Virus record (IMG/VR): IMGVR_UViG_3300029740_000238
Direction: 5' to 3' (one strand)
From: a virus
Lineage: Duplodnaviria; Heunggongvirae; Uroviricota; Caudoviricetes
Length of the DNA: 61,506 nucleotides
Each line of letters begins with the position of its first letter. Within the stretch, counting starts at the first letter, position 1. The notes beneath the pieces were generated by a model, which was not told where the DNA came from, searched no databases, and was given only the letters and a program-made list of their open reading frames with translations. This document shows, piece by piece, positions 10,220-41,908 of the stretch. Both the position numbers and the translations under genes were made by a program.

Positions 10220-11383
10220 ATGAATAAACGTAAAGTTTCTTTTATCCTTGCAACTGCTCTGGCTGCATCCATCATCATGTCTGGCTGTGCATCGACTGCT
10301 GTGTCCGGCAGTGACAGTTCTTCTACTGCCACTGAAGAATCTGCAACCGTCGAGACTGCGCTGAACATTGATTACAGTGCGGGTCTAAAAAAGGACGGTC
10401 ACTATGCTGGTGTCAAGGCCAAGAATATTGTTACTCTTCCGGATGACTATGACCATATGACCTTTAAGACTGAAGACCTGCACATGGAAGACGGCGCTCT
10501 GGATTCTGCTTTGCAGCAGATTAAGCAGACTTACGGTGAACACACCACTGTGGACCGCGCGGCGCAGGAAGGCGATTGCGTGACGGTGGATTATACCGGC
10601 TCCTACAACGGCGATGAATTCCCGAACGGTTCTGCAAAGGATGCCGAAATCGTATTGGGTCAGGGATATTACGTAGATGGCTTTGAGAGCCAGATTGAAG
10701 GACATTTTGCCGGTGAGAAGTTCGATATCACTGTGACTTTCCCCGACAGCTACCCTGACACCACGGATTCCGAGGGCAACACTCTGAGCCTGGCTGGTCA
10801 GGATGTTCAGTTCCGCATCGAACTCAAGGATGTCTCTGAGCTGACCTTGACGGATGACTCTATCGTGAACTGCTTCGGCGATAACAAGTATTACACCGAG
10901 GATGGTACTCTGGTCAATTCCGTGGATACTTTCAAACAGTATTACAATGAGCTTTTGACCAAAGATGCTCTGGGCCTTGCCATCTATAACTATATGATGG
11001 ATAACTCCGTTGTTTCTGAAATTCCTCAGAACCTCATTGATGACCAGCGTGATACTTACCGCAAGGAAATCGAAACAAGCGCTGAAAACATGGGCAAAAC
11101 TATGGACGAATACTTGGAAACCACCGATTATGATACTGAGGATGCCTTGCTCGACAGCTACAATGACCGCATTGAAGAAAGCGTAAAGGCGTATCTGATT
11201 TTCCAGGCTGTGGCTGAAGCAGAGAAAATCAAGGTCACCGATGCCGATGTAAGCGATTATTTTGGTGATGATTCTTTGAGTGTCCAGCAGGCTCAGAAAT
11301 ACTACGGCGAAGAATATGTGAACCAGACGGTTCTGTACAACAAAGTAGGTGACTGGCTCACTGCTCACGCAACGATTGTGTGA
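10220..11383 (+). CDS. Lipoprotein trigger-factor-like chaperone (FKBP PPIase + TF C-domain)
   Basis: Lipobox IMSGC; DRAAQEGDCVTVDYTG...FPNGSA...LGQG..VDGFESQIEG...VTFPDSY; helical TF C-domain; no ribosome-binding N-domain. Confidence 0.85.
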   Translation: MNKRKVSFILATALAASIIMSGCASTAVSGSDSSSTATEESATVETALNIDYSAGLKKDGHYAGVKAKNIVTLPDDYDHMTFKTEDLHMEDGALDSALQQIKQTYGEHTTVDRAAQEGDCVTVDYTGSYNGDEFPNGSAKDAEIVLGQGYYVDGFESQIEGHFAGEKFDITVTFPDSYPDTTDSEGNTLSLAGQDVQFRIELKDVSELTLTDDSIVNCFGDNKYYTEDGTLVNSVDTFKQYYNELLTKDALGLAIYNYMMDNSVVSEIPQNLIDDQRDTYRKEIETSAENMGKTMDEYLETTDYDTEDALLDSYNDRIEESVKAYLIFQAVAEAEKIKVTDADVSDYFGDDSLSVQQAQKYYGEEYVNQTVLYNKVGDWLTAHATIV

Positions 11384-15074: not shown

Positions 15075-16337
15075 TCAATCCACGGCTTTGATTTTTTCTT
15101 TCAGCTTTGTAGCCATCTCAATCACTTCTTCAAGTGCTGCAATGTCGGAATCTCTCGATTCCTGTGAAACATGGCGCAATGCTTTTTCATAGCTCTTGTT
15201 TGAATAGACTCGCTGCAACTTCTTGATGATTGTCGGAGTGGTTTTTAATACGGCACTTACACTGATATCTGCCGCTTCCCTCTCCTTCTTGGCAACGTCC
15301 TTGGTAGCATCCTTTTGGGCATCATACTCAAAATCTGCTACTTCTTCCGGGGTGTTGCACTCTTTGATAATCCCGAACTCTTCGGCTTTCTTTTTGAGCT
15401 CCTGTAATTCACTGTCAAAATACTCGATGGATTTCTTATAGGTTTCTTCGTGCTCTGCTCTGGTACGCTGCTGCAAGGCACTGAACAGGTATTCCCGGAA
15501 CGTATCGTGAAGCGTATCGCGCATCACTTCGATGTGGTTCTTCCCTGCTTCTTCCCCGGTATCGCCGTGACAATCCACTGCATTGAGCTCTTGATACTTT
15601 TGACCAATCTCTTCCTGCTTCTCATCATCGAATCGCAGATAGCTTTCACACTCGCTTCGGCTCAGGAATTTAGCGTCGAGAAGCTCTTTCAGGCTCCCCT
15701 TCAGTTTATCTTCGAGCCGTGCATCTCTGTCGATGGTTTTCGGGTTTACAGAACTCACGCTCTTGATTGCTTTCAGAGCGTCTACCCTATTCATATTATA
15801 GGGTTCTTTCTGGAGACATTCGATAAAATCTGATACAGCCTTTCTGCGAACTGCCTCATCATTTAGGCCACCACGCACCTGCAGGTTTGCGCTGTAAAGC
15901 AATACCTTCTTTTCGTTATCGGAAAGCTCTGTCGTAATGACATTGCAGTTCCGAACAATCTGCCAGGACGTATCCCCTTCTTCAACAAGCAGCTTGATAG
16001 CTCGATATCTTCTTTCACCGGAAAGAAGAACATAGACCTCTCTCCCCTCTTCTGTGGATGGGAACATGACCAGGTTATGCAACAGGCCGTTGCGCTTGAT
16101 GTCATCCGCAAGAATCCGAATATCTTCATCGTCATCTATTTCACGGAATATTTCATTATCAGGGTTTGTTCGGATATTAAAGAGGGATATGTCGCGGCTC
16201 TCGTATTCTATCTTGTGCTTTGCATTGAGTAAGTCGTTATAAAATGCACCGGCGTTATTGTTATTTACTTTCTTCAAAGCTTCAATATTAGGCAACTTGG
16301 GTGTGGTTACAGGCCCCTTCTTCTTTGTCAATGCCAT
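15075..16337 (-). CDS. parB: ParB-family partition protein
   Basis: IRTNPDN...LADDIKRNGLLHNL...LLSGERRYRA (ParB arginine patch); directly downstream of parA. Confidence 0.88.
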   Translation of the reverse strand: MALTKKKGPVTTPKLPNIEALKKVNNNNAGAFYNDLLNAKHKIEYESRDISLFNIRTNPDNEIFREIDDDEDIRILADDIKRNGLLHNLVMFPSTEEGREVYVLLSGERRYRAIKLLVEEGDTSWQIVRNCNVITTELSDNEKKVLLYSANLQVRGGLNDEAVRRKAVSDFIECLQKEPYNMNRVDALKAIKSVSSVNPKTIDRDARLEDKLKGSLKELLDAKFLSRSECESYLRFDDEKQEEIGQKYQELNAVDCHGDTGEEAGKNHIEVMRDTLHDTFREYLFSALQQRTRAEHEETYKKSIEYFDSELQELKKKAEEFGIIKECNTPEEVADFEYDAQKDATKDVAKKEREAADISVSAVLKTTPTIIKKLQRVYSNKSYEKALRHVSQESRDSDIAALEEVIEMATKLKEKIKAVD

Positions 16338-16338
16338 T

Positions 16339-17199
16339 TTACTTCACCTCCAGCTTTGCCAAACGCTTCATCAATTCTTTATAAACCTGCTGATATGCAA
16401 TTGAAACAGGCTGCTTTGCTGCATAGAAACACACTGGCTGATAATTAGTAACAGACATACCGACACTGATGCTGTTCGGGATTTCATGCTCAAACAGAGC
16501 AGGGCCCAAAACATCCTGACACTGTGTGCGAATCAGCCTTGCAGCTTTCGCCTTTTTATTCACCGCTGTCAAGAGAACACCCACGCCTTTGATTCGGCTC
16601 CCTGGTGCATTGCACAGCTCATTGCACAGTGCGAACGTTCTGAAAGCAGACCCACGGGAGTTTGCATCACACATCATGGGAATCAGAATATAATCGGCTG
16701 CACTAATTGCATTGGTAAGCAGCAATGAGTCACGGGTCGGCTGCGTATCGATAATTATGTAGTCATAATCGTCCAACACCTGCTCCAAGAAATAAAACAG
16801 GAAGTCCGACATCTTATCAATGCGTTTCATGGCTCCACTTTTGGCCAGGATATTCGCATCATCAAACAAGTCAGCTAATCTCTGATTGATTTTCGGCGTT
16901 TGAGCACTTCCGGGAATCATATCCACATTATCACCATACTCGGTCGGGACAATGAAATCGCGGGTTTTCGTATACCGGAAGCCGCTGAACATATCATAGA
17001 GTGCGTGTCCTTCATACAGACCCTCTGTGATTTCACCTTTCCCATCACTGAGAGCACTGGTCAAATTGCCTTGGGGGTCTGTGTCAATGCACAGCACTTT
17101 CTTTCCATCTTCCCCCATCAGATATGCTAGGTTCGAAGCGGTAACGGTCTTCCCTGTTCCGCCCTTTTCAATCGCGACTGTGATGACTTTCGCTGGCAT
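16339..17199 (-). CDS. parA: ParA/Soj-family partition ATPase
   Basis: KGGTGKT, VLCIDTDPQGNLT, YDYIIIDTQP; start at MPAKVI with RBS gaggtg. Confidence 0.93.
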   Translation of the reverse strand: MPAKVITVAIEKGGTGKTVTASNLAYLMGEDGKKVLCIDTDPQGNLTSALSDGKGEITEGLYEGHALYDMFSGFRYTKTRDFIVPTEYGDNVDMIPGSAQTPKINQRLADLFDDANILAKSGAMKRIDKMSDFLFYFLEQVLDDYDYIIIDTQPTRDSLLLTNAISAADYILIPMMCDANSRGSAFRTFALCNELCNAPGSRIKGVGVLLTAVNKKAKAARLIRTQCQDVLGPALFEHEIPNSISVGMSVTNYQPVCFYAAKQPVSIAYQQVYKELMKRLAKLEVK

Positions 17200-17450
17200 G
17201 TTACGCACCTCATTACTCAAGAGTTGAGTTACTCGAGTACCTGTTATTGTAATTTTAGTCTTAACGTGGTGTTTGACCTGACAGCGTGATTTTTGTCTTG
17301 CAAGGCCCAATTACGAACTCTGCTTGCATATACAAATCGCACAAAATGTCAACACCCACAATCTCAATGATTCAATTATAACATGCTTTAGCTAAATGTC
17401 AACGCGAACTTTGGAGACTGCTTCTTTTTGATATTCTATACAAGCCGTCA

Positions 17451-17659
17451 TGAACTCACATCCCTGTTGGTATAAATCCAATCTTAATTGTTAGAGCCTT
17501 GTTACCGCTGCTTTTGGCAGTGGACAGAGTACTATTCATCCCCTGTCTGAAACGCACGTTCCTGTTGGTGTACGACCTGGGTTGGCATCTCATAACATTG
17601 CAAATGAAAGTTTCTCTCTGGTCCAGAACTTAAATTCCTGTTGGTGTAAATTCATTTCT
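17451..17659. repeat. Three copies of the CCTGTTGGTRTA repeat upstream of parA (candidate parS/operator)
   Basis: Cores at 17463, 17561 and 17637. Confidence 0.75.
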
Positions 17660-17673
17660 GATGTTTGGCAAAC

Positions 17674-17701
17674 AAAAAAAGCCCACCAAATGGTGGGCCC
17701 T
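17674..17701 (-). terminator. Terminator of rep
   Basis: aaaaaaa-gcccacca-aa-tggtgggc immediately after the rep stop (T-run on the minus strand). Confidence 0.75.
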
Positions 17702-17704
17702 ATT

Positions 17705-19273
17705 TCATTCGTTTGTGTCCTCATCGAACACTGTAGTAAAATCAATCAGCTTGTTCAGGCCATTCTCATGAGCATTGATTGCCCGTTCACCCAACGCGAT
17801 TGTGGTTGCCGAGCTTTCAATCAAATCATTGAAGATGACTTTGCGGTAATAGTTGGCGGTCTTTGTTCCGCCGTCTGCTTCCAGCAAGGATTTGTACCTC
17901 GTGGCAATGCCGAACGTCCAGGTCTTTAACCCGTTGTTATCCTTAATGATTCGGTTCAGAGCGTTAAAAGCTTCTTTGTTATGTTCAGGATTTCGAGTGC
18001 TGGTTAAGATTTTGCCGACAATGGTAAACACATCGGTAAAAATATTGCGTTCTTCCGGCGTCAGCTTTTCTTCATAGTCCTGGTATTGAGCTTTGGCTTT
18101 CACTTCGTTTCGCGCCATATTATAGCTCATGCTCATTACAGCTTCGGAAAGCGGCAGGTTGTATTGCTCAAGAGTTTCAAGACTCACTACGCGGCGGGAT
18201 TTACGCTTTCGGCCAACTTCGGTTTCAAGGTTCTGCCGCTCTTCATGAAAGGCACGAACCTTTTTCATCTCTTCCTTGGTCTTGTACTTGATGAATATAT
18301 AAAGGAACTCGTACTTTCTGACACCTTTGCGGCGAACCGGTTCGTAGTCGAACCAGAGGTCCGTCATTTCATTGATTTCGGCTTTGACAGGTGCAAGAAT
18401 GTTCTTTTCAAAATCAGAAAAGACCTTATATTTTTCAGAAACAGTTTTTTCTCTACTGAATTTGGGCTCAGAGCTGCTTTCCGTCTTTCTGCTCTTTTTA
18501 CTGCGCAGTATTTCATCTTTGGACGGCATGGAAAGCATTCCTTTGAATTCTTCCATGTCAAAGACTTTGTATTTGTAACCCTTCAGCTCATTTTGCTTGT
18601 CTGGGAATTTACGAAGCACAGCTTCCGTGACTGGTTCGAATATCACGCCGTTCGTGTAGTTGTATTCTCTGGTTCCGTTATCATAGGACAACACAATCTC
18701 ATAGATGCGCATCGAATAGGTGCTTTGCATCGTGAGCAAATACTCAATACTATAAGAAGTATAATTGCTTGTCAGCTGTGCGATGTCTTTCCAGATATCT
18801 GGGTTAAAGCGCATTTGAATGGTTTTGTCTTTGAAATTAACGCGAGAGCCCTTGCTAATCCAAGAAATGGTTTTTAACTGGTCCGGCCCGTCGGGAACCC
18901 AGAAGGTACGGTTTTCCAGGTTTTCTACAATCTGCTGTAGATGCGGTTTATAACCGCTGCGCATGATGTCTACGCCTGTAAGCTTTGAAAACTCCTGGAA
19001 TGTAATGGTGTAATATTTCGATGCATCTCTATCATTACGCTGGTCGATTTTGGATAGCATAATCAGCAAAATCTTTTGCTCATTTCGAGGCAATGAATAT
19101 TTTGTCTTTTGAATCAAGTCATTGCTTTTCGTGATGATAGACTTATTGAGCGCTTTAACCTCGGGTAGTTGAGCCAATGCCATCTGTTCTTGAACTTCCT
19201 CATTACTGAGAACTTCACCAACAACTGACTCAACATTATCATTAGCTTTTGCGTTGCTGTCTTTCTTTTTCAT
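17705..19273 (-). CDS. Plasmid replication initiator, Rep_3 (RepB) family; start uncertain (frame open to 19336)
   Basis: ITKSNDLIQKTKYSLPRNEQKILLIMLSKI...STYSMRIYE...FSDFEKNILAPVKAEINEMTDL; adjacent to iterons and parAB. Confidence 0.88.
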   Translation of the reverse strand: MKKKDSNAKANDNVESVVGEVLSNEEVQEQMALAQLPEVKALNKSIITKSNDLIQKTKYSLPRNEQKILLIMLSKIDQRNDRDASKYYTITFQEFSKLTGVDIMRSGYKPHLQQIVENLENRTFWVPDGPDQLKTISWISKGSRVNFKDKTIQMRFNPDIWKDIAQLTSNYTSYSIEYLLTMQSTYSMRIYEIVLSYDNGTREYNYTNGVIFEPVTEAVLRKFPDKQNELKGYKYKVFDMEEFKGMLSMPSKDEILRSKKSRKTESSSEPKFSREKTVSEKYKVFSDFEKNILAPVKAEINEMTDLWFDYEPVRRKGVRKYEFLYIFIKYKTKEEMKKVRAFHEERQNLETEVGRKRKSRRVVSLETLEQYNLPLSEAVMSMSYNMARNEVKAKAQYQDYEEKLTPEERNIFTDVFTIVGKILTSTRNPEHNKEAFNALNRIIKDNNGLKTWTFGIATRYKSLLEADGGTKTANYYRKVIFNDLIESSATTIALGERAINAHENGLNKLIDFTTVFDEDTNE

Positions 19274-19429
19274 CGTCGATTTGAGACAAGCCAGATGGCT
19301 GCTCAGCCTTTCTTTTAATATGCAGCAAACCATCAAAGAAAGCTTTTCCTAAAAATGGTTACACTAAGAACATTATAATTTAGTTTACAACAATTGTCAC
19401 ATAATGTCAAGGTTCTATTGATTAGAATT

Positions 19430-19500
19430 ACGATTCTTTTATTTCTTTTTAGATGCAATTTATATTTTATTCTTTTATTATTTATTCTTTATTATATATA
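19430..19500. other. AT-rich tract, candidate DNA unwinding element
   Basis: Nearly pure A/T with repeated ttcttttatt, next to the first iteron. Confidence 0.55.
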
Positions 19501-19504
19501 GAAG

Positions 19505-21557
19505 AAACGGAGGTTATTTTGCTTGTAAAAAGAGTTTGTTTTGCTCTTCACGGGAGCTTGTTTTGTGTTTCGGAGTAGATTGTTTGCTTTGGGAACAGAG
19601 CTTTATTTCGGTTAACTTGCGAAAAGAACCTCTGTTTGACTCGAAAAGAACCTCTGCTTTTGATTGTGAGTACGAGCTCATCCTGAATATAATTATTTCA
19701 AAGCTATTTCTTCGCATAAATGGCGGGGAAAAAATGCAACGTAAATAATCTCCGTTATGCAATGTCGGGTTCTTTGACTAGCAGGGGAGGGGAGAACTGG
19801 TACGACTCGGAACAAAAATGATGGGTCAGACTATAGTAGCATTCCAGCTGCGGTCTTACATTGAAGAAAGTATTGACAAAAGCGAACGTAAATAATCTCT
19901 GCTTTAGTCGTAGCACTCGGTCAAGTATCATTACCCAAAAATGCAACGTAAATAACCTCAGTTTTGCAGTGCATCACGCTTGAGACTTTATATGCTTCTG
20001 GAAAAGTTCTTTAACCACGCCAGAGACAAAAACGTAACGTAAATTATCTCCGTTTAAGAAAGTGTGAAACTTCCAAATTTGTGGTGGTCGGTCTGACTTA
20101 CGCTAATTTCTCATGAAAAAACAACGAACGTAAAGAACCTCCGTTTGAAATGACTGATGCTTTGCTCGTTCAACCTCAAAATCTAATAAAAAGAATCTCT
20201 GGTAAATGCTTACAGCAATTCCTAACAGAACAGCTACCGTACCATGCTCACACAGGGCTGCTTATAATATAATAGTTTGTTTTATGGCAAATGTCATTAT
20301 TCTATGGGTCAAAAAAACATCCAAAATGGACAATGATAAGCATATTATACAAATAGTAGACGCAACTCACAAAAAAAGGTAATGTATCAAAGGAATCGGA
20401 GATTATTTACGTTGCAAATTTGGTTCAGCTTCGCTGAAATAAAAGCACGATAACACGATAATAATGTTGATGTGGAAACAAGAATGACGAAGCTATATAA
20501 GAGAAAATTAACGTAGCAGTTTTGAATTTGCACTTACAGATGAATACTGATGAAAACAGCTAAAAATGCATGGGAACTATGCGGTATAAATTACAACCTG
20601 TTAAATATTGTGTAATTCTACGTTCAGGAAATGCCATGAAGCGTTTGGGTAATTTGTAAGTTCAGAAAGTTGAACGTAAATAACCTCGTTTTACAATACA
20701 GCGAAAAATTAACGTAAATAACTTCTGCTTTAGAAAAAACGAGTCGAGAGTAGAGGAATGCCCAAAATCAATGTAAATAACCTCCGCCAAGCCGCTCTCA
20801 AAGTGACACTCCCGAAAACGAACGTAAAAAACCTCAGGTTGACGATACGCCTGTGAAAGAGTGAAGGCTGCCATCATATCCAGAACGGAAAGAAAACAAT
20901 CTCCGGTTGGTACGACTCACAAAGTCAAGCTCACTTGATAGTAGGGGAGAGAAGGAGAGAATTGAATAATGACTGAGCTGGAAAGTAAAATTGAACGAAA
21001 ATAACCTCTGTTTTATGGGGACTCTACAATACTTGGTTTGCCTCATCCAGATAACCCGACTGTTGTAAAACCGAAATTAAAACGTAGATAACCTCGGGGT
21101 AATATATCGGTATTTCATTCTCAAACTATATTACTGAGTGAATTGGAACGAAAATAATCTCCGGTTTAATTGCTCAGACACAAAAACACTGCAAACTAAA
21201 AACTGCACGTAAAGAACCTCCGTTTGCTTATGGAAAGGTTTATGAACAAAAGAAGAAGCTAAATACGAAAATAACCTCCGTTAAAGCTGGACCTGGATAG
21301 CACTGAAATTGTGAATTGCTAAACTGTGGGTAAGTATAAAGATGAGTGAAAACAATCTCTGTTATAGTCTCAACAGAAAAAGTGGAATGTAAATAATCTC
21401 TGTTTAGTTGAGCTGAATGGATTGGTTTGGAAAGAAAAAAAGTAACAGTGAGAACCTCAGAATACCACAAAGGCCAAGGATAATGTATTTATTCAAGTTT
21501 TTCTGAATGCCCACTTCGCCTGAGAGCAGCAAGAAAAGTCGATGTAAATAATCTCCG
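19505..21557. repeat. Iteron array / replication origin (~20 copies of AACGTAAATAAYCTCYG)
   Basis: Direct copies at about 19738, 19885, 19945, 20036, 20127, 20673, 20711, 20770, 20821, 20889, 20994, 21081, 21147, 21206, 21264, 21345, 21386 and 21541; inverted copies at about 19508 and 20397. Confidence 0.85.
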
Positions 21558-21737
21558 TTATGTTTATCCAAAGCAATTTTGAATTTACAACAACAGGAAC
21601 GCAATAACATGGACATAAAATAGACGAAATACAATAACAGGTACGCAAGTGATTTACACATTGAAAGAAACTGTAATTGTGAAATGATAATTAACAAAAC
21701 AACAATTTGTTGTGACCAAAGTGCAGGAATGGTATAA

Positions 21738-22320: not shown

Positions 22321-24768
22321 ATGGTTGGCAGCTATCAGACAATAACATATAACAGATATGCAGTACAAAGTGCGACAAAATACAAGGCTAAAATCGTTGA
22401 TATTCCATTCTGTGACCCTGAAAGCGGCTTTTCAATTCTGGTTGCATCTCGGATTGAAGACGGTAAGAGCATTGTCCTCAAAGGCATTATTCCGAACCCT
22501 GTTGAGAATGCTTATATTACCTATCAAGGGCACTGGGAACAAGATGCACGGCGGGGAACACAGTATGTTAAGGTCGAAAGTTGCAAGATTGATTATGAAG
22601 CTGGCGGCACAGATTCTATCTATGAGCTGTTGACCAGCGGATATGTACCGGGAGTCGGACCCGTAACGGCAAAGAAAATCATCAAAGCATTTGGTGCCGA
22701 TTCCCTCAAAATAATCGAGAAAAGCCCGGAAAAGCTGACGGAACTGGCCGGAATCAAAGAAAAGGCAGCAAAGAAAATCCACGATGCCTATATTCATATC
22801 GCAAAAGACCAGGAATTGATTTCTTTTCTACTTCCCTTCATCTCAATGCAGAAAATCAATGCCGTTCTGAAAGAGTACGGGGACAGCAAGCAGGCATTAG
22901 CCGCCATCAAGGAGAATCCGTATTGCCTATATCAAGATGTCAGTGGCATCGGGTTTGCTGCATCTGACCGCATTGCGTTGGTCGGGCTGGGAATGGACAG
23001 GAAAGACCAGCGCAGGGTGGAAGCTATCGTGCTACATTCGCTTGAGGTGCAGGCACAGATGGAAGGCCATTCTTTCGTTTGGCTGAATCAGTTGATGGCC
23101 TGCGTGGCAACGACCGTTGAAAAGGAACTGCACGAATCACGAATTCCTGAACAGTCAATACGAGATGCTGTGAATGGCGCGAGACGAAAAGGACTGCTGG
23201 TGGCAGAAAAGTCTAGTGGGAACGCAAGCGGAAAACCTCTCTTCTGCGTTTATCTGCGCCGATACTGGGCACTTGAATGCGACATCACGTTCCTTTGCCA
23301 TACGTTGCACCACTGCATGAATGCAGCGTGCGGCATGGTCTCGAAAGCCGATGTGGATAGAGCTATCCAGAACGTGCAGATGAAAGATGGCTTTCTGCTG
23401 GACGACACTCAAAAGCAAGCAGCATACACGGTGTATGGCAGTGACAGCCAGAACGTGACGGTAATCACTGGCGGCCCCGGCAGCGGTAAGACGACTATCA
23501 TCAAAACCATCATTGAAGCGTTTATGGTTGCTAAAGGCAGCTACTATAAAGAAGAAGACATTCTGCTCTGTGCTCCTACTGGTCGAGCATCGGCAAGAAT
23601 GCGGGAAGCAACAGGACACGCAGCATCCACGATTCAGTCAGCGTATTTTGGCTGCTTTGATAATGAAGCGAGTGTGATTGTGGTTGACGAATTCTCGATG
23701 TGTAACCTTGAAACGGCGCATATGGTATTCTCACTTGCTTCCCATGGCTGCAAACTGGTCATCGTGGGAGACCCTGACCAGCTTCCTGCAATCGGAGCGG
23801 GTAACGTTCTTCGGGACTTGATTGACAGTGGAGAAGTGAATGTATGTAAGCTCTCCTCCTGCCATAGAAATATGGGCGCGATTGTAGAGAATGCAATACA
23901 CATCAATGCTGGTGAGCAGACGAGTACTTTCAGACAAGACGAATCGTTCTTGCTGATTCCGGCCACCAAAGGTATGGAAATCAGAACAACAGCGCTGTTC
24001 AATTACTTTCATTTCGTTCGAAAATATGGCGAAGTGAATGACCTGGACAATAGACATGCGGAGGATGGAATTCGTAAAGGTGTTCAGAATATATGCCTGC
24101 TTACACCGGTCCGTAAAAAGGGAAGTGGGTATATTTCTGCAACAGACCTGAATCTTTTGATTCGGGATAAGCTTAATCCGGCAACATATGAAAACAGCGG
24201 ATTCATTGAATCCTTGAAAGGCGTACCGGAACAGGGATTCGATTACCGAATCGGTGACCGCGTGATGCTGTGCAAGAACCATAGAGGCAGCTTTGTAAAC
24301 GGTGATATGGGTTTCATCACGAGCTTTGAACCGAAAGCCCTGGACCAGGATGGCGCGATGATTTGCAACGCCTATACAGTAAGGTTCGATAACCCTTGCG
24401 ATGTGGATGGCGAATGCTTTGAGATGATTGTCAGCAGAAAGACGATGCAATCTGAATTTGCGTTGGCATATGCGATGACGGTTCACAAGTCACAGGGTTC
24501 TGAGTTCAAAGCAGTCGTGGTGGCGTTTGATACCGGCTGGAAACAGCTGCAGCAGCGAAATCTTCTGTATACCGCAGTGACTCGTTCGAAGAATGAGTGC
24601 AGAATTGTAGGCAATATGGACGCGGTCGATGTGGCAATCGATACGAACGACATTGAAAACCGCAACTCATTGCTCAAAAATAGGTTACAGCACTATAACA
24701 ACGAAAAATACCTTGACATTCACATGACGAATTTTGGGACTTCCGGAACAGATTGTTTTGCGGAATGA
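22321..24768 (+). CDS. recD2: RecD2-like SF1B helicase
   Basis: HhH GVGPVTA, ENPY, TGGPGSGKTT, APTGRA, VDEFSM, VGDPDQL, LAYAMTVHKSQGSEF, LYTAVTRS. Confidence 0.92.
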   Translation: MVGSYQTITYNRYAVQSATKYKAKIVDIPFCDPESGFSILVASRIEDGKSIVLKGIIPNPVENAYITYQGHWEQDARRGTQYVKVESCKIDYEAGGTDSIYELLTSGYVPGVGPVTAKKIIKAFGADSLKIIEKSPEKLTELAGIKEKAAKKIHDAYIHIAKDQELISFLLPFISMQKINAVLKEYGDSKQALAAIKENPYCLYQDVSGIGFAASDRIALVGLGMDRKDQRRVEAIVLHSLEVQAQMEGHSFVWLNQLMACVATTVEKELHESRIPEQSIRDAVNGARRKGLLVAEKSSGNASGKPLFCVYLRRYWALECDITFLCHTLHHCMNAACGMVSKADVDRAIQNVQMKDGFLLDDTQKQAAYTVYGSDSQNVTVITGGPGSGKTTIIKTIIEAFMVAKGSYYKEEDILLCAPTGRASARMREATGHAASTIQSAYFGCFDNEASVIVVDEFSMCNLETAHMVFSLASHGCKLVIVGDPDQLPAIGAGNVLRDLIDSGEVNVCKLSSCHRNMGAIVENAIHINAGEQTSTFRQDESFLLIPATKGMEIRTTALFNYFHFVRKYGEVNDLDNRHAEDGIRKGVQNICLLTPVRKKGSGYISATDLNLLIRDKLNPATYENSGFIESLKGVPEQGFDYRIGDRVMLCKNHRGSFVNGDMGFITSFEPKALDQDGAMICNAYTVRFDNPCDVDGECFEMIVSRKTMQSEFALAYAMTVHKSQGSEFKAVVVAFDTGWKQLQQRNLLYTAVTRSKNECRIVGNMDAVDVAIDTNDIENRNSLLKNRLQHYNNEKYLDIHMTNFGTSGTDCFAE

Positions 24769-24784
24769 CAGAGGAGTAAACGAT

Positions 24785-26758
24785 ATGGCTAACATGCCGT
24801 TGACTGACATTGGTATTACGCCGCGAAAAGCAAGTCAATTTGCTAGTAAGGGAATTGAAACGGTGACAGACTTGCTCGGGTATTATCCGACCAAATACTT
24901 GGATTTCAGGAATCCTATCTCGTTTGCGGAAGGAAAATATCATCAAGGAGAGCATGTTGCCATCAAGGGTAAGGTCGTGAGTGGCCGAGTGATTGATGGC
25001 AAGCATTACATGCTGCGCCTTACGGACGGGAACACTTTTTGTACGGTATTCTGGTTCAATCAACCGTTCCGCACACGGCAGTTTTCAGTCGGCGACGTCA
25101 TTGCGCTTGGCGGAGTCGTTTCCTGGAACGAGCAGTACAACAACATGACAATGGCAACGCCTGACTTTGTCACGACGGATATCGCGTCAGCTTTCTCTAT
25201 CCAGCCGGTTTATCGGAAAATTAAAGGAATGTCGGTGGAATACCTGGAAGATGCCATTAAATTGGCGATGCCTTATACCAGAGAATGCTCGACCGAAACC
25301 TTGAGCCTGGCTCAGATGCGGGCGCTGCGAGTTCCGCCGATTGCTGAAGCCATTCACATGGCACATCAGCCGACCGATGAAAAGGAAATCAGGCTTTCCC
25401 GAAAACGCAGAGCGGTCGATGTGTTGTATCCGTTCTGCTATGAGCTGGAAGCAAAGAAAGCAGAAGCCGCAAAGGTGTCGTTCTGTCGAATTAAGAGTAC
25501 GCGGGACGTTCTGAACAAGATGCGGGGAGTCTTACCGTTCAAGCTGACAGAGGACCAAAAGAACGCTGCTGAACATATGCTCACCGAGATGGAACACGGA
25601 GAACGTGTGGATACCCTGGTTCAGGGTGATGTAGGCTGCGGTAAAACGGTCGTTGCTGAGATTTGTGCATTAGCTATGGCAATGAATGGGTTTCAGTGTG
25701 CCGTTATGGCTCCGACCGTGGTTCTTGCCACGCAGCACTATGAGGAGTTCTCGAAAATCCTCGGCTCGTTCGGGTACAAGACGGTTTTCCTGCGCAGTGG
25801 CATGAAAGCAAAAGAAGAGAAATCGGTTCTCGAAGAGATTGAGAGCGGCAAGGCTCAAATCATTGTTGGAACGCATTCTGTGATTTCCGGGAAGGTCAAG
25901 TATCATAAGCTGGGTTTAACGATTGTAGACGAGGAACATCGGTTCGGCGTTGAGCAGCGTGAAGCACTCAAGCAGAAAGCAAAAGACGGCGTTCACAATG
26001 TCAGCATGAGCGCTACGCCAATCCCGCGCTCGTTGGCGAACACTTTGTATGGGGAAGGCACCGAAATCGTTAATATCCATACGATGCCTGCCGGGCGCAA
26101 GCCTGTAAAGACCATTATCTGGTCCAATGAAAACAGCTGCTACAAATCCGTGTATAACCAAATCAAAGAAGGACATCAATGCTATGTCGTATGTCCATTG
26201 ATTGAAGATTCGGATTCCGAGTCTCTTGAAGGTGTTGATTCGGTTGAAACCACCTACAAAAAACTTACAGAATGGTTTAAGCCGTATCCGGAAGTGAAAA
26301 TCAAGGCAATATCGGGTGACATGAAAGCTAAAGAAGTACAGGAAGGAATTGAAGCGTTTGCTCAAAAGCAGGCTGATATCCTTATCTCTACTACGATTGT
26401 TGAGGTTGGTGTGAATGTTCCGAACGCTACGGTCATTGTTATAAAGAACGCGGAGCGCTTCGGGTTAGCACAGCTGCATCAGCTCAGAGGGCGTGTTGGA
26501 CGCAGCAGCTTGCAGAGCTATTGCGTGCTTCTTTCTAAGGACAAGGAGAATGAGCGCTTAAAGACTATGGCGGCGACCAATGACGGTTTCAAGATTGCTG
26601 AAAAGGACTTGGAACTGCGTGGGACCGGTCAGATTTTGGGCGTTAAGCAGAGTGGCAAAGACGCGGTGATGGAGATGGCTCTAAACTATCCGCAGCTTTA
26701 TCAAGCAGTAAGAAAGCAGGCGGAAATCCAGTATAAAATCGACCATCCGATGGGTTGA
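24785..26758 (+). CDS. recG: ATP-dependent DNA helicase RecG
   Basis: LPFKLTEDQ, QGDVGCGKT, VDEEHRFG, MSATPIPRS, AERFGLAQLHQLRGRVGR, DLELRG. Confidence 0.95.
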   Translation: MANMPLTDIGITPRKASQFASKGIETVTDLLGYYPTKYLDFRNPISFAEGKYHQGEHVAIKGKVVSGRVIDGKHYMLRLTDGNTFCTVFWFNQPFRTRQFSVGDVIALGGVVSWNEQYNNMTMATPDFVTTDIASAFSIQPVYRKIKGMSVEYLEDAIKLAMPYTRECSTETLSLAQMRALRVPPIAEAIHMAHQPTDEKEIRLSRKRRAVDVLYPFCYELEAKKAEAAKVSFCRIKSTRDVLNKMRGVLPFKLTEDQKNAAEHMLTEMEHGERVDTLVQGDVGCGKTVVAEICALAMAMNGFQCAVMAPTVVLATQHYEEFSKILGSFGYKTVFLRSGMKAKEEKSVLEEIESGKAQIIVGTHSVISGKVKYHKLGLTIVDEEHRFGVEQREALKQKAKDGVHNVSMSATPIPRSLANTLYGEGTEIVNIHTMPAGRKPVKTIIWSNENSCYKSVYNQIKEGHQCYVVCPLIEDSDSESLEGVDSVETTYKKLTEWFKPYPEVKIKAISGDMKAKEVQEGIEAFAQKQADILISTTIVEVGVNVPNATVIVIKNAERFGLAQLHQLRGRVGRSSLQSYCVLLSKDKENERLKTMAATNDGFKIAEKDLELRGTGQILGVKQSGKDAVMEMALNYPQLYQAVRKQAEIQYKIDHPMG

Positions 26759-26782
26759 CCCTGCTTGCGAGTCGCAGATAAT
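26755..26782 (+). promoter_or_regulatory. TGCG-class promoter of the bactofilin-sec operon
   Basis: ttgacc-ctgctTGCGagtcgca-gataat; the -35 overlaps the recG stop codon. Confidence 0.65.
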
Positions 26783-26840: not shown

Positions 26841-27500
26841 TTGTTTGGAACAAAGAAATCACAAACTCAGCCGGAACCGGTTGAGACTATCGCAGCTCAG
26901 GAACATAAGCAGAGTATTGGGAATCAGGTGATGGAAGCATTGGGCGTTGGCGAGAACGGAACCGGGCTCGATGAAGAATCTGAAATCCTGATGCCGAAAC
27001 AGAATCAGCGGCAACTGGAAGCGGAGGGTGTTGTGAAGGAAAGCGTATGTGTCATTTCCAAAGATGCAGTTATCGGCGGAGGCATCGATGTTAAAGGTGA
27101 TTTGATGGTTGCCGGAAAGGTAATGGGTCATATCTCTGCATCGACTGTGACTTGCGTTGGGGAAACCAGCTACATCGAAGGGAATGTGACTTGCAACAAG
27201 CTTCGGATGCACGGCGGTAAAATCAAAGGTCATGTCACGGTGCGTGAGAAGGCTGACATCAATGGTGAAATCAACGGCGACATTGAATGTCTTTCTGAAC
27301 AGACTGCGGCTTTTGGCGAACATGCGGTCGTGGCAGGGACTTATATCCGGTGCAGCATGTTGAAAGTCGAACCTGGCGCTCAGATTGCAGCAAAGATTGA
27401 AATGAAGAAACCGAATGCACTTCCGGCATCCACTGGCAGCAGTGAGACGCGGCAGAGAAGTATCCGGATTCCAAACCAGACTCAAGCCATTAGCTCCTGA
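26841..27500 (+). CDS. Bactofilin (polymer-forming cytoskeletal) protein
   Basis: VISKDAVIGGGIDVKGDLMVAGKVMGHI...IEGNV...IKGHV...INGDI beta-helix repeats; RBS aggagg before the TTG. Confidence 0.8.
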   Translation: MFGTKKSQTQPEPVETIAAQEHKQSIGNQVMEALGVGENGTGLDEESEILMPKQNQRQLEAEGVVKESVCVISKDAVIGGGIDVKGDLMVAGKVMGHISASTVTCVGETSYIEGNVTCNKLRMHGGKIKGHVTVREKADINGEINGDIECLSEQTAAFGEHAVVAGTYIRCSMLKVEPGAQIAAKIEMKKPNALPASTGSSETRQRSIRIPNQTQAISS

Positions 27501-27535
27501 GTAAATCAAATCACAATCACTTGGAGGAAATAACA

Positions 27536-28813
27536 GTGAATAAACTGAAATCCATCTGGCAGATTGAGGATTTGCGAAAAAAGATTCTCTTTACACTCCT
27601 TCTCATTCTGGTATTCCGCCTTGGATGCAGCATTCCGGTTCCGTTTGTATCCAATACCGCATTGGATTCGATGTTTTCCAATGACAGTATCTTCGGATAC
27701 ATGAACATGCTGTCTGGCGGTGCTCTTTCTCGATGCGCGTTCTTTGCGTTGGGTGTGAGTCCTTACATTAACTCGTCCATCATCACTCAGCTTTTGTGCG
27801 TGGCACTCCCAAGCTGGGAAGCACTGCAAAAAGAAACAACTGGAAAAGACAAACTAGACGAGTACACCAAACGAATTGCTCTGGCAATGGCTGCAATCAT
27901 GAGCATCGGCTATTACTTCGTGCTCCGCAATTACGGAGCTCTTGAGTATACGGCAGGGAAAAGTGGGTTCTTCGCGGCGGTTGTTATTATGGCAACTTTC
28001 CTTGCAGGGTCTCAGCTTTCTGTCTGGATTGGCGGCCGAATTGATGAGTTTGGAATTGGCAACGGCGTTTCAATTCTGATTTTTGCCGGTATCGTGTCTC
28101 GCTGGACCGACATCAACACGATTGCCCATAACATTGCCGTTCAGGTCGAGAGCGGCAACTGGCTGTACTCTCTCGTGGGTATCGGGATGGTAGTTGCAAT
28201 GCTCTTCGCTGTGTGGTTCGTATCCTACAGTGATGGGGCAGAACGTCGTATCCCCGTTCAATACGCAGCACGTAAATACAATGCAAGAGGCCAGGCTTCT
28301 TATATCCCCGTAAAGCTCTTGATGAGTGGTGTGATGCCGATTATCTTTGCTGGCGTTATTATGAGTATCCCGGCAACGGTAGATATGTTCGTAGACGCCA
28401 CGAAGCACGTAAGACTTCATTCGGCCCTTTCTGTATTCTCTTCCGGCAGCTGGATTTACTATGCCGTATACGTTATCCTGATTGCTCTTTTCAATTTCTT
28501 CTATATCGAGATTCAGTTTGATGCTGTTTCGATTTCCAGCAACCTGCGCAATCAAGGCGGCGCAGTGCCCGGATATCGGCCCGGTCCTCAGACAACCGAG
28601 ATGCTGAACAAAGCATTACACAAAATGGCACAGACTGGTTCCTTTTATCTGGCCATCATTGCTCTGATGCCGATGGTGTTTAGTTTAATCAGTGGAACTC
28701 AGATTTCTTTTGGTGGTACAAGCTTGATGATTATGTCCAGCGTGGCGCTTGAGGTTGTGCGCAGCATGGAAGGATATCTGACTGTGCGTCATCATAAAGG
28801 ATTCTTGGGATAA
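27536..28813 (+). CDS. secY: Preprotein translocase subunit SecY
   Basis: LRKKILFTL...RLGCSIPVP, FALGVSPYINSSII, GIGNGVSILIFAGI, RRIPVQYA, GVMPIIFA, PGYRPG, FGGTSL. Confidence 0.95.
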   Translation: MNKLKSIWQIEDLRKKILFTLLLILVFRLGCSIPVPFVSNTALDSMFSNDSIFGYMNMLSGGALSRCAFFALGVSPYINSSIITQLLCVALPSWEALQKETTGKDKLDEYTKRIALAMAAIMSIGYYFVLRNYGALEYTAGKSGFFAAVVIMATFLAGSQLSVWIGGRIDEFGIGNGVSILIFAGIVSRWTDINTIAHNIAVQVESGNWLYSLVGIGMVVAMLFAVWFVSYSDGAERRIPVQYAARKYNARGQASYIPVKLLMSGVMPIIFAGVIMSIPATVDMFVDATKHVRLHSALSVFSSGSWIYYAVYVILIALFNFFYIEIQFDAVSISSNLRNQGGAVPGYRPGPQTTEMLNKALHKMAQTGSFYLAIIALMPMVFSLISGTQISFGGTSLMIMSSVALEVVRSMEGYLTVRHHKGFLG

Positions 28814-28827
28814 AGGGGGAAAGGCAA

Positions 28828-29070
28828 ATGAGCATTATCGAATTTTTCTTGGGCCTTGTGGTATTGGCAGCCAGTCTTGTCGTGAGCTGTGCATGTTATA
28901 TTGTCAAAAACGAAAAGGGTGGCTTGAACGCGGCTCTTGGCGGTGCAAGTGACTTTATGACGACTCGCCGGAATGACAACAACCTGAAAGTAAACAAGTT
29001 TGTTATGAAGGTTGGCGTTGTGCTCACTATTGCGATTCTGGCTCTAACAATTATCGGTGCCCACTTTTAA
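28828..29070 (+). CDS. secG: Preprotein translocase subunit SecG
   Basis: 80 aa; two TMs joined by KGGLNAALGGASD; directly follows secY. Confidence 0.75.
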   Translation: MSIIEFFLGLVVLAASLVVSCACYIVKNEKGGLNAALGGASDFMTTRRNDNNLKVNKFVMKVGVVLTIAILALTIIGAHF

Positions 29071-29081
29071 GGAGAAACGCT

Positions 29082-29273
29082 GTGAAAAAGAATGAAATTC
29101 GCTCGATTCCGGCCAAGGTAGCCGATACGCTGCATCCGTCAAATGTGACTTGGCTTAGCGCTAAGGAAACTACAAAGCGTACGGGTGTGATTCTTTGTGT
29201 GGTTGCTGCGTCAGCTGCTTTTATGATGTTGGCGGATACGCTGTTTGGCGCAATGCTGAGATTTGCAATTTAA
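29082..29273 (+). CDS. secE: Preprotein translocase subunit SecE
   Basis: 63 aa; VTWLSAKETTKRTGVIL...LADTLF matches the SecE V.W(P)...E...T..V...D pattern. Confidence 0.7.
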   Translation: MKKNEIRSIPAKVADTLHPSNVTWLSAKETTKRTGVILCVVAASAAFMMLADTLFGAMLRFAI

Positions 29274-29288
29274 GGGGGCACAAGGTAT

Positions 29289-29654
29289 ATGAAGAAACTG
29301 ATAGCTGCTATGCTGTCGTTTGTTATGGCTATGATGCTGTTGGCGGGGTGTGCGTCCGCTAGTACGGATAATACGTTCTCGGACCCGATGCAGCAGGTTT
29401 CACTGTCCAATGATGAGATGCTTACGTCTCTGAATAATGCGACCGCAGCACTGCAGGAAAATATCAATAAGACGGATGATTCCGCAAAAGTTGAGCTGGT
29501 GGTTGCGGATGACGGAAGCTGTTCTGTCTATGCGTCCGGCAGCAACACGGAAAGACAGGAGCTGTGCAAAGCCGATTCCGTTAAAGCGATGTTTGAAATT
29601 TACTATGAAAACAACTGGATTGATAAAGATGGCAATGTCAGTTCGGCAGGGTGA
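29289..29654 (+). CDS. Lipoprotein
   Basis: MKK + hydrophobic stretch + LAGC lipobox. Confidence 0.75.
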   Translation: MKKLIAAMLSFVMAMMLLAGCASASTDNTFSDPMQQVSLSNDEMLTSLNNATAALQENINKTDDSAKVELVVADDGSCSVYASGSNTERQELCKADSVKAMFEIYYENNWIDKDGNVSSAG

Positions 29655-29676: not shown

Positions 29677-30870
29677 ATGAAACGTTTGTTTGCGGGAACA
29701 CTCGCGCTTGTAATGACATGCGGGCTGCTGTTTTCTGGGTGTGGGAAACAGATGACCCCCGAGGAAGAGGCAGCGTCTCAGGAAGCCGCCATTTCTCAGC
29801 AGCTGCAGGATGAAGAGAACAAGACTGGCTTGAAACGGCTTATCAGCAACAATTTAACTGAGTATGAGCAGCCGGTTCATGATTTTATCGAAGGTTTGCA
29901 GGATGGGGATGCTGAGAAGACGGCAACGGCACTCGGCGTTCCGAACACTTTCGGGGAAAAGCTTCAGGATTGGGTCGTTGTCAATGACTTTGAGACGTTC
30001 CAGAAAACGGATATGACCAATATTTGTCTGAACTCTGCCAAGGAAGGCTCGAAAGCTGCTATCAATGTCTTTATGAAAACTCCGGAAGAAGTCACGGCGG
30101 ATACCTCTCCGGATTATACATTGACAGCGGAATATACAAACGGTGCCTGGGTTTTGAATCCACCAACCGGAATTCTCACCGATTATTCCTTCACAGTTCC
30201 GAACAACAAGGTGAGCTTCCAGGGAACAGACCTTTCAAGCTACACGGCAAAGAATGCTGAAACCGGCGTATGGACCGTAACACTTCCCCGTGCTCTGGAC
30301 CTCGATAGTGACGCTGCCTATGTAATTTCTACAGATATGGGCGACTTTAATGGCCGTGTCTATCAGGTCGCTGCTGATGGAAATAAGAAGCAGATGCTGC
30401 TTGCGGATATCGATTCCGATACAAGAGACGCTTATCAGAGCAAGCTCTCTGCTGTCATGAAGGAAGTCTATCGTCTCCTTTCCATTGGGGCAGGGGAGAG
30501 CGACTTCTCAAACGTTCTGCTGGATTCCAATGAAATCTCGAACTGTGTTCCGGAACCAGTTGACAGCGATGATGATGTGGAAGCAATTCAGGCTAACGCT
30601 GACAAGAAAGCCCTCGGCGCATCTGTTACGTCAATTACGGTAACGCCCGATGATACGATTGAAGGATACCCGGATGCGTATACCTATCGGCTTGACGGGA
30701 ACGACGGCGTGAAGATGAACGTAAAGCTGAAAGTATCTACAACAAACGGCGATGCACATATGAAGGCAACGATTGGTATGCGCATCATCAATGGTGCTTG
30801 GAAAATCGTGTCGATTGATTCGAAGCGCGATATCTTTACAGGATTGTCTGTGCTTGACCCTGAATGGTGA
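29677..30870 (+). CDS. Lipoprotein
   Basis: RBS aggagg; MKRLF...FSGC lipobox. Confidence 0.75.
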   Translation: MKRLFAGTLALVMTCGLLFSGCGKQMTPEEEAASQEAAISQQLQDEENKTGLKRLISNNLTEYEQPVHDFIEGLQDGDAEKTATALGVPNTFGEKLQDWVVVNDFETFQKTDMTNICLNSAKEGSKAAINVFMKTPEEVTADTSPDYTLTAEYTNGAWVLNPPTGILTDYSFTVPNNKVSFQGTDLSSYTAKNAETGVWTVTLPRALDLDSDAAYVISTDMGDFNGRVYQVAADGNKKQMLLADIDSDTRDAYQSKLSAVMKEVYRLLSIGAGESDFSNVLLDSNEISNCVPEPVDSDDDVEAIQANADKKALGASVTSITVTPDDTIEGYPDAYTYRLDGNDGVKMNVKLKVSTTNGDAHMKATIGMRIINGAWKIVSIDSKRDIFTGLSVLDPEW

Positions 30871-31861: not shown

Positions 31862-31967
31862 ATAGGATGAATATTGTAAGATAGATAACAATAGTTTTCT
31901 ACCAAAAATAATATTCACAACCCGTAAGCGGATTCTCTATGTATGTAGAGAGTCCGCTATTTTATTT
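31841..31967 (+). promoter_or_regulatory. TGCG promoter + leader/attenuator, copy B
   Basis: ttgtca-N16-taggat; stem gaatattg/taatattc; atagataaca; ttcacaa; terminator agcggattctcta/tagagagtccgct. Confidence 0.75.
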
Positions 31968-32952: not shown

Positions 32953-33081
32953 CGCTGCGTGCGATATCCATACAATGAAAAATGTACGATAGATAACATC
33001 TACTTGGCACACTTGTGCTCGTACGATTCACAATTCGCTTAAAGGGGCGGACTTCCCATCTCGGGAGGCCCGCCTCTTTTT
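32949..33081 (+). promoter_or_regulatory. TGCG promoter + leader/attenuator, copy C
   Basis: ttgacg-N16-tacaat; tgtacgatagataac...tcgtacgattcacaattcgcttaaaggggcggacttccc...gggaggcccgcctcttttt. Confidence 0.85.
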
Positions 33082-33107
33082 GCATTATAAGAAAGGGAGC
33101 TTTTATT

Positions 33108-41036: not shown

Positions 41037-41321
41037 ATGTCGGCTATCAGTGATGTTGTGAACTATTTTCAATCTCTTTATCAATCTGGTGATATCAAGC
41101 TGGCTGTTGATATTGCATTGATTGTGATGCTGATTTGGTTTATCATGCGCGGCGTAAGTCGTTTGTTTGAGACTCTAGTTCTTGGAGCCATCACGATTTA
41201 TGGCGTAAACATGTTTCTTAATTATATTGGCGTTACGGTTGACTATCAAGGACTGTTGAGCCAGATTGGATTCTATCTGAATCAATTTCTAACCTTCATC
41301 AATAACAATTTACCGAGGTGA
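41037..41321 (+). CDS. Small membrane protein
   Basis: Two hydrophobic segments; RBS aaggagg. Confidence 0.7.
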   Translation: MSAISDVVNYFQSLYQSGDIKLAVDIALIVMLIWFIMRGVSRLFETLVLGAITIYGVNMFLNYIGVTVDYQGLLSQIGFYLNQFLTFINNNLPR

Positions 41322-41908
41322 CATTTTTGGAAGAGAATAACATTGTGCTTTCCCGCACACAACGAATGAAAGATTTTGTGAAAAGTTGGGCACTGCCGGT
41401 CATTTGCTTTGTGGTGTTCTGGCTGATTTTTAAATTTGTCCTTATGACTTCCATTATCCCAACACAGTCAATGTATCCGACTCTTTCGGCACCGTGTTTC
41501 ACAGTTGGGGTGAGAACGAACGTTCTGAGTAAGCCCTACGAGCGCGGTGACATTGTTCTGTTTCAACGCGGTGATGGCAACGAACGCTTTTATGCCAAAC
41601 GAATCGTTGGTATGCCTGGAGATGTGCTGGAAATCAAGCACGGGCAGACATATATTAACGGTGTCGAATACGAAGAATCTTATTTGAACGAAACACCGGA
41701 AGACCTTGACTTTGGACCGTTTCAGGTTCCGGAAGACCATTATTTTATGATGGGCGACAACCGAAACAATTCGTATGATTCTCGGTATTGGGATGAACAT
41801 TTCGTTCCGGCCAACAAGGTTATGTCTAAGGTGTATCTGCATTTTCATCTGGGACTTTCAGACAAAGACTCACAAGATGATATGGCTGTTCAGAAAGGAG
41901 AAAACTGA
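41318..41908 (+). CDS. lepB: Signal peptidase I
   Basis: TM + SMYPTL, RGDIV, KRIVGMPGD, YFMMGDNRNNSYDSRYW. Confidence 0.92.
   Translation: MTFLEENNIVLSRTQRMKDFVKSWALPVICFVVFWLIFKFVLMTSIIPTQSMYPTLSAPCFTVGVRTNVLSKPYERGDIVLFQRGDGNERFYAKRIVGMPGDVLEIKHGQTYINGVEYEESYLNETPEDLDFGPFQVPEDHYFMMGDNRNNSYDSRYWDEHFVPANKVMSKVYLHFHLGLSDKDSQDDMAVQKGEN

Follow-up and report, generated by a model that had tools for sequence, protein, structure and literature searches.

A plasmid-borne secY–secG–secE gene set in a distant relative of the Hodor megaplasmids

We analyzed a 61,506-nt stretch of DNA from IMG/VR virus record IMGVR_UViG_3300029740_000238 (hereafter the window), in which genes for a bactofilin, SecY, a SecG-like protein and SecE lie consecutively and are followed by two lipoprotein genes. 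This gene order, proposed in a first-pass annotation from the sequence alone, is confirmed by open reading frames (ORFs), profiles and lipoboxes. The bactofilin, secY, secG-like and secE genes are four adjoining plus-strand ORFs with gaps of 11–35 nt and a Shine-Dalgarno-like site before each, and the locus comprises the following features:

26755..26782, plus strand: sigma-70-like promoter TTGACC-16-GATAAT, likely operon start (consensus match only)
26841..27500, plus strand: bactofilin, 219 aa, a backbone gene downstream of recG (PF04519, 60 bits, cut-off 27.9)
27536..28813, plus strand: SecY, 425 aa, of the plasmid clade described below, with pore ring and R357 kept and C4 tip eroded (TIGR00967)
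28828..29070, plus strand: SecG-like protein, 80 aa, two hydrophobic segments (PF03840, E 0.0017, below cut-off)
29082..29273, plus strand: SecE, 63 aa, one hydrophobic segment (TIGR00964 and PF00584, above cut-off)
29289..29654, plus strand: lipoprotein 1, 121 aa, lipobox, no known family, present or absent at the site together with secY–secG–secE
29677..30870, plus strand: lipoprotein 2, 397 aa, lipobox, predicted NTF2-like and possibly VirB8-like (model, Foldseek), a backbone gene
31927..31958, plus strand: terminator-like hairpin, 14 pairs, possible transcript end (consensus match only)

The set is a variant of the plasmid secY–secG–secE kind already known from the 'Hodor' conjugative gut megaplasmids, whose G1 and G2 members carry these genes (Yuan et al., bioRxiv, February 2026; PMC12934698). 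For comparison we took record G007 as a Hodor G1 and record G008 as a G2, two of the 38 curated Hodors; G002 is the closest full-length relative of the window, and G003 and G004 represent a sister lineage whose SecY is 79% identical to that of the window.

The window SecY scores 333 bits against TIGR00967 (cut-off 253.6) and fails both SecY2 models (152 against 353 and 140 against 249.6); its likely start is the GTG at 27536, which gives the 425-aa length of the database matches, and the longest ORF begins at 27521. SecE passes both of its profiles (TIGR00964, 30 against 27.55; PF00584, 30.9 against 22.7), all 12 SecE orthologues match a profile, and the profile built from them retrieves solved SecE chains from the Protein Data Bank (PDB). 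The proposed profile check was passed by bactofilin, SecY and SecE; the SecG-like protein stays below its cut-offs, as it reaches 18.9 bits against PF03840 (E 0.0017; cut-off 29.2) and 14.6 against TIGR00810 (cut-off 30.85). PF03840 is matched by 11 of 12 syntenic SecG-like orthologues (best E 3.4e-7), and a profile from 12 such orthologues retrieved no PDB SecG. In housekeeping contexts secE lies beside nusG and secG elsewhere, and the accessory system consists of SecY2, SecA2, Asp1–5 and a serine-rich repeat adhesin. None of rplO/adk, nusG, SecA2/Asp or a serine-rich adhesin was found among the 50 window ORFs scanned, which together with the failed SecY2 models bears out the earlier claim that the genes sit in neither an spc nor a SecA2/SecY2 context. 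The ratio of non-synonymous to synonymous substitution (dN/dS) shows that secY evolves under purifying selection: it is 0.05 in the comparison with G002, with 34 synonymous and 6 non-synonymous changes, and again 0.05 in that with the sister lineage, for which synonymous changes approach saturation. The locus holds a plasmid-borne, selected secY–secG–secE set that is neither an spc copy nor SecY2.

From the gene arrangement we infer that the bactofilin-to-lipoprotein genes form a single operon. Promoter-like sites numbered 25 against 15.7 expected, which makes a single match weak, yet the hexamers at 26755..26782 upstream of bactofilin are also present in G007 and G003. Two RNA runs from one study gave a few contigs of 150–260 nt at depth 2–5 over recG, bactofilin, secG, rep and par, a sparse signal in which DNA carry-over is possible, and no contigs across most of the origin, again in sparse data.

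The plasmid origin placed about 5 kb from the sec genes by the first-pass annotation holds up:

15075..21737, no single strand assigned: replicon of parB, parA and Rep_3 (minus strand) with an iteron-rich origin

The genes for Rep_3 (17705-19336), ParA and ParB adjoin an AT-rich gap of 2.4 kb (19337-21737) that ends ~5 kb before bactofilin and contains a 15-mer iteron in about 18 scattered copies, most of them oriented the same way; the remaining 59 kb has a single copy. Between parA and rep (17447-17654) lie three 34-nt repeats, with an inverted match at 21580-21601, that are candidate parS or Rep-control sites. Rfam and ARAGORN searches returned nothing in the window.

G002 is a 222,366-bp IMG/VR record of class 'direct terminal repeats' that spans 97.8% of the window at 92.4% identity. 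An exact end-repeat check at eight lengths found no repeat; the G002 join is flanked by topA and parM, which are neighbors in G007 too, and we take G002 to be circular on the basis of its class and this flanking. Beyond the part shared with the window, G002 has 155 ORFs of 110 aa or more, of which 150 were scanned; among these are genes for VirD4, VirB4, a ParM-like protein, TopA and LigA, but none for a ribosomal or capsid protein, and the 50 window ORFs scanned likewise include no ribosomal protein. In family searches G002 yielded no match for sortase (PF04203), YidC or SecDF, and the SecA search gave only a cross-match to RecG below the threshold. The longest G002 ORF is 2,095 aa, and there is no giant protein. 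An array of 17 tRNA genes occupies G002:141628-150128, and G007–G010 carry 13–28 each.

The arrangement recurs. All six IMG/VR loci examined keep the bactofilin–sec gene order (6/6; SecY 98–99% or 79% identical, one with a 1.6-kb insert before secY), as do 11 metagenome loci with SecY ~97–100% identical, one of which, at 100%, is possibly not independent. Over its full length the window SecY aligns at 99% to many-member clusters, and the protein clusters of the operon comprise hundreds to thousands of sequences, so the element seems common. In the sister lineage a sortase is present, as is a secreted protein of 2,980 aa that is 33–34% identical to a Hodor giant (G003:36234-45176 and G004:49991-58921); G002 has neither. 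Similar 420-aa ORFs, by eye of RRXRR/HNH IscB type, are inserted on either side of sister-lineage secY–secG–secE with the sec genes unbroken (L004:8688-9950, L004:12059-13321 and L229:7282-8544).

A motif scan of 31 of 64 parts of the metagenome collection recovered at least 116 loci, 80 of them with flanks; the other 36, of at most 636 nt, were left out of the counts. Among the flanked loci, 38 are linked to rplO/adk, 37 to secG/secE, four to neither and one to both; the 38 spc-linked loci served as controls. The 37 secG/secE-linked loci fall into 12 lineages at 92% identity, all with the order secY–secG–secE. In a quick tree with one SecY per lineage, the 12 lineages form one clade (SH-aLRT 100). 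The plasmid clade lies inside a group of Faecalibacterium sp., Gemmiger sp. and one further SecY (98), with a Subdoligranulum spc copy next (99), and a careful 58-row tree, from which partial and near-duplicate SecY sequences were excluded as from the quick one, agrees (plasmid clade of 30 rows, 100/99). Mean SecY identity is 52% inside the plasmid clade and 73% among host-like copies, and the nearest chromosomal SecY copies are 46–50% identical to that of the window. From their non-spc context we infer that the distant metagenome lineages are also plasmid-borne. The tree points to one capture from a Faecalibacterium/Gemmiger/Subdoligranulum-like chromosome, and the host would belong to the same group. 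Further secY–secG–secE lineages occur on L277 (a 490,895-bp contig), L242, L215, L224 and L237, with RecJ-like, HD protein, NrdD and RecG neighbors.

A profile scan reached the Hodor records G007 and G008, whose sec genes have the order secY–secG–secE. In PLSDB, the best SecY matches inspected come from spc regions of chromosomes that are entered as plasmids (C. difficile, Vescimonas and Subdoligranulum), and we used them as outgroups; several of the 'plasmid' records behind L007–L009 and L319–L321 are chromosomal pieces with the spc ribosomal operon. Among PLSDB Rep proteins none covers 80% of the query. GTDB gave no close SecY relative among the matches listed (best 41%), and 10 of 10 checked are rplO/adk-linked. 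P0019, P0021, P0024, P0025, P0028 and L220 were dropped as apparent assembly chimeras: the first five are plasmid/chromosomal secY hybrids that switch at or before the conserved TM7 start and are probably chimeric, and L220 has rplO upstream and secG/secE downstream.

Gene by gene, the window is collinear with Hodor G1 record G007. Identity to G007 is 76% for Rep, 79% for ParA and 69% for ParB and, in G002, 81% for ParM, 82% for TopA, 77% for VirB4 and 87% for VirD4. SecY departs from this pattern, with 47% identity between window and G007 against 90% between G007 and G008. Hodors are defined by at least 90% similarity over at least 10 kb to a curated Hodor; they exceed 300 kb and carry sortases and giant proteins of >7300 and >2600 aa, and a 'distant relative' shares at least 50% identity in Rep_3, ParA, ParB or ParM (PMC12934698). 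At ≥90% identity, G002 matches G007 over 2.8% of its length (about 6 kb) and G008 over 0.3%. The element is a Hodor 'distant relative' by the paper's rule and is not a Hodor member. None of the six IMG/VR record names is among the rows listed in the Hodor spreadsheet (PMC12934698). Segments 22321-26758 and 48599-50881 hold a large set of DNA-metabolism genes, collinear with Hodor G1, for two RecD2-like helicases, RecG, an SSB, a YqaJ-like exonuclease and a primase-like protein. Segment 51082-60904 encodes a pilin (PF18895), a 2,003-aa membrane protein and an M23 peptidase, with VirD4 and VirB4 next in G002; the 2,003-aa protein has no Pfam match, differs in its middle among strains and is a candidate VirB6-like protein. 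Hodors carry a MOBH-like HD relaxase and an oriT; in the window, an HD protein at 33015-33677 is 76% identical to its G007 counterpart and scores 13 bits against a MobH model with a cut-off of 200.

The sec genes and the backbone appear to have separate histories. In a backbone tree, the window, G003 and G007 form one clade (100/100; inner order 66/73) and G008 and G009 the other, and an approximately unbiased test rejects a clade joining window-type SecYs with that of G1 (p 2.3e-6). In G007 the bactofilin gene is followed after 14 nt by lipoprotein 2, with secY, secG, secE and lipoprotein 1 missing; the sec genes of G007 lie at 251 kb, beside the giants. Two of three G1-backbone lineages have the bactofilin–sec arrangement, and the SecY of G007 falls within the G2-side sequences, so that, most simply read, Hodor G1 likely replaced its native sec module with that of G2. 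Between G007 and G008 (L149–L151), SecY is 90% identical, the giants 85–86%, a 4.2-kaa protein 94% and the foldase described below 74%, with backbones only about 40–60% alike, and G009 and G010 pair a replicon of the G2 kind (Rep 97%) with a SecY at 70%. Modules appear to have been swapped between plasmid lineages.

The first-pass annotation held that the window SecY keeps canonical motifs, which is so for the pore and the C5 arginine and not for the C4 tip. Mapped onto E. coli SecY, the pore ring of the window SecY is hydrophobic throughout (V79, I83, V183, I187, I275 and I404), and R353 is the C5 arginine, E. coli R357. Across all 30 clade rows the six ring positions stay hydrophobic and R357 never varies, the R357 motif is present in all 37 secG/secE-linked loci, and the pore ring, TM2, TM7 and C5 are conserved as well as in host copies. 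At the C4 tip (E. coli K250/R255/R256) the window sequence is eroded, with a 3-residue deletion. None of the 28 rows outside the clade departs from K250, R255 and K256; inside it these positions vary (mean conservation 0.90 outside versus 0.36 inside), and the C4 motif occurs in 37 of 38 spc-linked SecYs, the lone miss being truncated, versus none of the 37 linked to secG/secE. In E. coli, R255/R256 and R357 are described as binding the ribosome, FtsY and SecA (PMC3575545). Speculatively, the eroded C4 loop could bias the channel from the ribosome/FtsY route towards SecA. A degenerate motif at the E. coli N270 position, tried as a plasmid-specific mark, was rejected as not diagnostic because it also matched the 38 spc-linked SecYs.

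Genes around the channel differ in how closely they follow it. With a four-sequence profile built here for the metagenome loci, bactofilin was found before secY in 3 of 12 lineages (17 loci of one clade, with SecYs 79–82% identical to the window) and in none of the eight others for which 900 nt or more of upstream sequence is available; for the remaining lineage the flank was too short. Both Hodor records keep a bactofilin far from secY, at about 230 kb and 28 kb, and G009 and G010, which may be fragments, have secY–secG–secE and no bactofilin match. The window bactofilin is 52% identical to its Hodor G1 orthologue, which has no secY alongside and keeps the same promoter-like site, with lipoprotein 2 directly after it. 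Bactofilin is mentioned neither in the Hodor main text nor in the rows listed in its spreadsheet supplement (PMC12934698). The proposal that bactofilin belongs to the Sec module and localizes it is not borne out by this distribution, and bactofilin is most likely an operon neighbor and not a channel component. Lipoprotein 1 tracks the sec genes better than bactofilin does, following secE in the three bactofilin lineages and missing with secY–secG–secE from the G007 site; searches with it found only close relatives and no fold match. Lipoprotein 2 is 68% identical to its G007 and 35% to its G008 counterpart, and its model (pLDDT 66) is NTF2-like, with Foldseek matches to 7sjy, 3ub1 (E 7e-5) and 7pkw at TM about 0.2, in the order RsgI9, conjugation protein 3ub1 and VirB8-like OrfG. 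This predicted fold is a lead that may link the operon to the conjugation envelope, and these VirB8-type matches, at low TM scores, are the part of the earlier proposal of a conjugation-apparatus purpose that gained a footing. Two further genes could act with the channel:

10220..11383, plus strand: 'trigger factor'-like lipoprotein with lipobox, FKBP and Trigger_C and no Trigger_N, a predicted outer-face foldase
41318..41908, plus strand: signal peptidase I, S26 (PF10502, 130 bits)

Plasmid 'trigger factors', Hodor ones included, are probably membrane-anchored outer-face foldases: all four scanned have what looks by eye like a lipobox and lack Trigger_N, the N-terminal domain with which cytosolic trigger factor, itself free of a signal peptide, binds the ribosome; homologues lie at L230:7078-8241, L213:2123-3295 and L240:2329-3492. 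The Hodor main text calls the protein a trigger factor chaperone and makes no remark there on a lipoprotein signal (PMC12934698).

We lean slightly towards a reading in which the set is a second SecYEG, powered by host SecA, that would serve plasmid envelope and mating proteins. Three scattered chromosomal genes would have been gathered into one operon after a single capture, and the operon would then have spread among gut plasmids with modules swapped. Plasmid SecY, SecG and SecE would assemble as a second channel using host SecA to export or insert plasmid lipoproteins and the predicted conjugation machinery, while the plasmid signal peptidase would cleave substrates and the lipid-anchored FKBP/Trigger_C protein would fold them on the outer face; the absence of SecA, YidC and SecDF from G002 counts for the presumed reliance on host SecA. 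Several points weigh against this reading. The window SecG falls below both cut-offs on its own score, the absences in the rest of the element rest on G002 standing in for the window's own, and the plasmid clade evolves fast, so that long branches may affect its place in the tree. Retention of the channel in G002 without giant or sortase speaks against the published substrate and names no other, and the NTF2 fold of lipoprotein 2 is widespread, with RsgI9 as top match at TM about 0.2 on a model of pLDDT 66. Loss of the C4 motif is no proof of lost ribosome binding because the housekeeping SecYs of B. subtilis, S. agalactiae and L. fermentum also lack it; the window loop still has three basic residues versus four, and the C4/C5 residues also serve SecA, which weakens a ribosome-specific interpretation. 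An elaboration that we think unlikely as a whole holds that gut Ruminococcaceae megaplasmids acquired an insulated export line through one ancient capture: a SecYEG minus its ribosome/FtsY docking loop, restricted to post-translational work with host SecA on plasmid cargo, together with a small lipoprotein as dedicated subunit, the plasmid's signal peptidase and an outer-face foldase derived from trigger factor, in which the module would be swapped along with its cargo, here the conjugation channel and not giant adhesins.

The set could instead be a general capacity booster with no substrate preference, which adds export capacity or mixes with host subunits and so offsets the load of a 200–400 kb plasmid. 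We consider this somewhat unlikely: SecY scores as housekeeping with its core intact, no substrate neighbor is fixed across the 12 lineages (trigger factor/sortase, RecG, HD protein and unknowns), and unrelated large plasmids (pWW1 and a B. longum plasmid) also carry Sec genes, but the three subunits always travel together (37 of 37 secG- or secE-matched loci, 12 lineages), the clade is far more diverged than host-like copies (52% against 73% mean identity), and Hodor G1 seemingly took the G2 channel together with giants and foldase (SecY 90%, giants 85–86%, foldase 74%), which suggests that channel and cargo are matched. That bactofilin filaments place a private translocon at the mating site, where the conjugation apparatus would be built locally, is doubtful; the adjacency to secY is kept in 17 loci of three lineages behind one conserved promoter-like site, and the bactofilins of both Hodor records could act in trans, yet the arrangement is confined to one clade (0/8 other lineages with ≥900 nt upstream), G007 has bactofilin–lipoprotein 2 without secY there, and G009 and G010 (maybe fragments) have secY–secG–secE without a bactofilin match. 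Fast divergence and module replacement between plasmid lineages would also fit conflict, in which the plasmid subunits would reshape the host translocon or compete with it, perhaps in entry exclusion or altered display to phages or rival plasmids, and an eroded C4 loop could weaken ribosome docking; with the pore ring, TM2, TM7 and C5 as conserved as in host copies and a signal peptidase and foldase-like lipoprotein on the same plasmids, such a non-export role is very improbable. Chimeric SecY assemblies do exist (P0019, P0021, P0024, P0025, P0028 and L220), but that the locus is itself a chimera, or the sole secY of a reduced chromosome, we judge next to negligible, given its gene order in 6/6 IMG/VR and 11 metagenome loci, a full-length SecY at 99% to many-member clusters, and no ribosomal protein among the 150 G002 and 50 window ORFs scanned. 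The first-pass annotation had named these outcomes as fatal to its claim, and the repeated gene order and lack of ribosomal proteins in the scanned ORFs largely refute them.

Plasmids are generally taken to depend on host Sec, and plasmid-owned SecYEG has only recently been described. This analysis adds to the published picture the channel's presence on a lineage whose closest full-length relative lacks giants and sortases, a single origin, likely module swapping, an eroded docking loop and a predicted exported foldase. This lineage separates the channel from giant adhesins and sortases, so its carriage must have a broader purpose. The lineages of common origin, at least 12 in number, with likely module replacement and a clade-wide docking-loop change, form a natural series for studying translocon substrate and pathway selectivity.

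Among known systems, Hodors are the closest. Their SecY, SecG, SecE, trigger factor and sortase B sit beside two giant proteins that are proposed as channel cargo, and secY–secG–secE is co-transcribed in one G2 genome (PMC12934698). The window shares with G1 and G2 Hodors the secY–secG–secE order, Rep_3, ParA and ParB (with ParM, VirB4 and VirD4 in G002), an FKBP and Trigger_C protein and a SecY within one plasmid clade. It differs in placing the sec genes between bactofilin and lipoprotein 2 and not beside trigger factor, sortase B and giants; its trigger-factor-like gene lies 16 kb upstream and is 30–32% identical to that of Hodors, it has no sortase, and G002 is 222 kb with no PF04203 match and a longest ORF of 2095 aa. 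Plasmid pWW1 (NC_015598 annotation) carries secG–secE–secA–secY, likewise a large-plasmid set for an additional translocon not of SecY2 type, a third SecY–SecA is described on the L. reuteri LL7 megaplasmid (PMC7446861), and a B. longum plasmid also carries secY. Lactobacillaceae megaplasmid sets differ in having their own SecA, another gene order and a SecY about 32% identical, and by this divergence are probably a separate capture. Like housekeeping SecYEG, the window set passes TIGR00967 and TIGR00964 and keeps the pore ring and R357, but its genes lie together on a plasmid with no rplO–secY–adk context and have lost the C4 tip motif. With SecA2/SecY2 it shares the concept of a second translocon for special cargo, whereas its SecY fails the SecY2 models, a true SecE and a SecG-like protein stand in place of Asp4/5, and G002 has no SecA.

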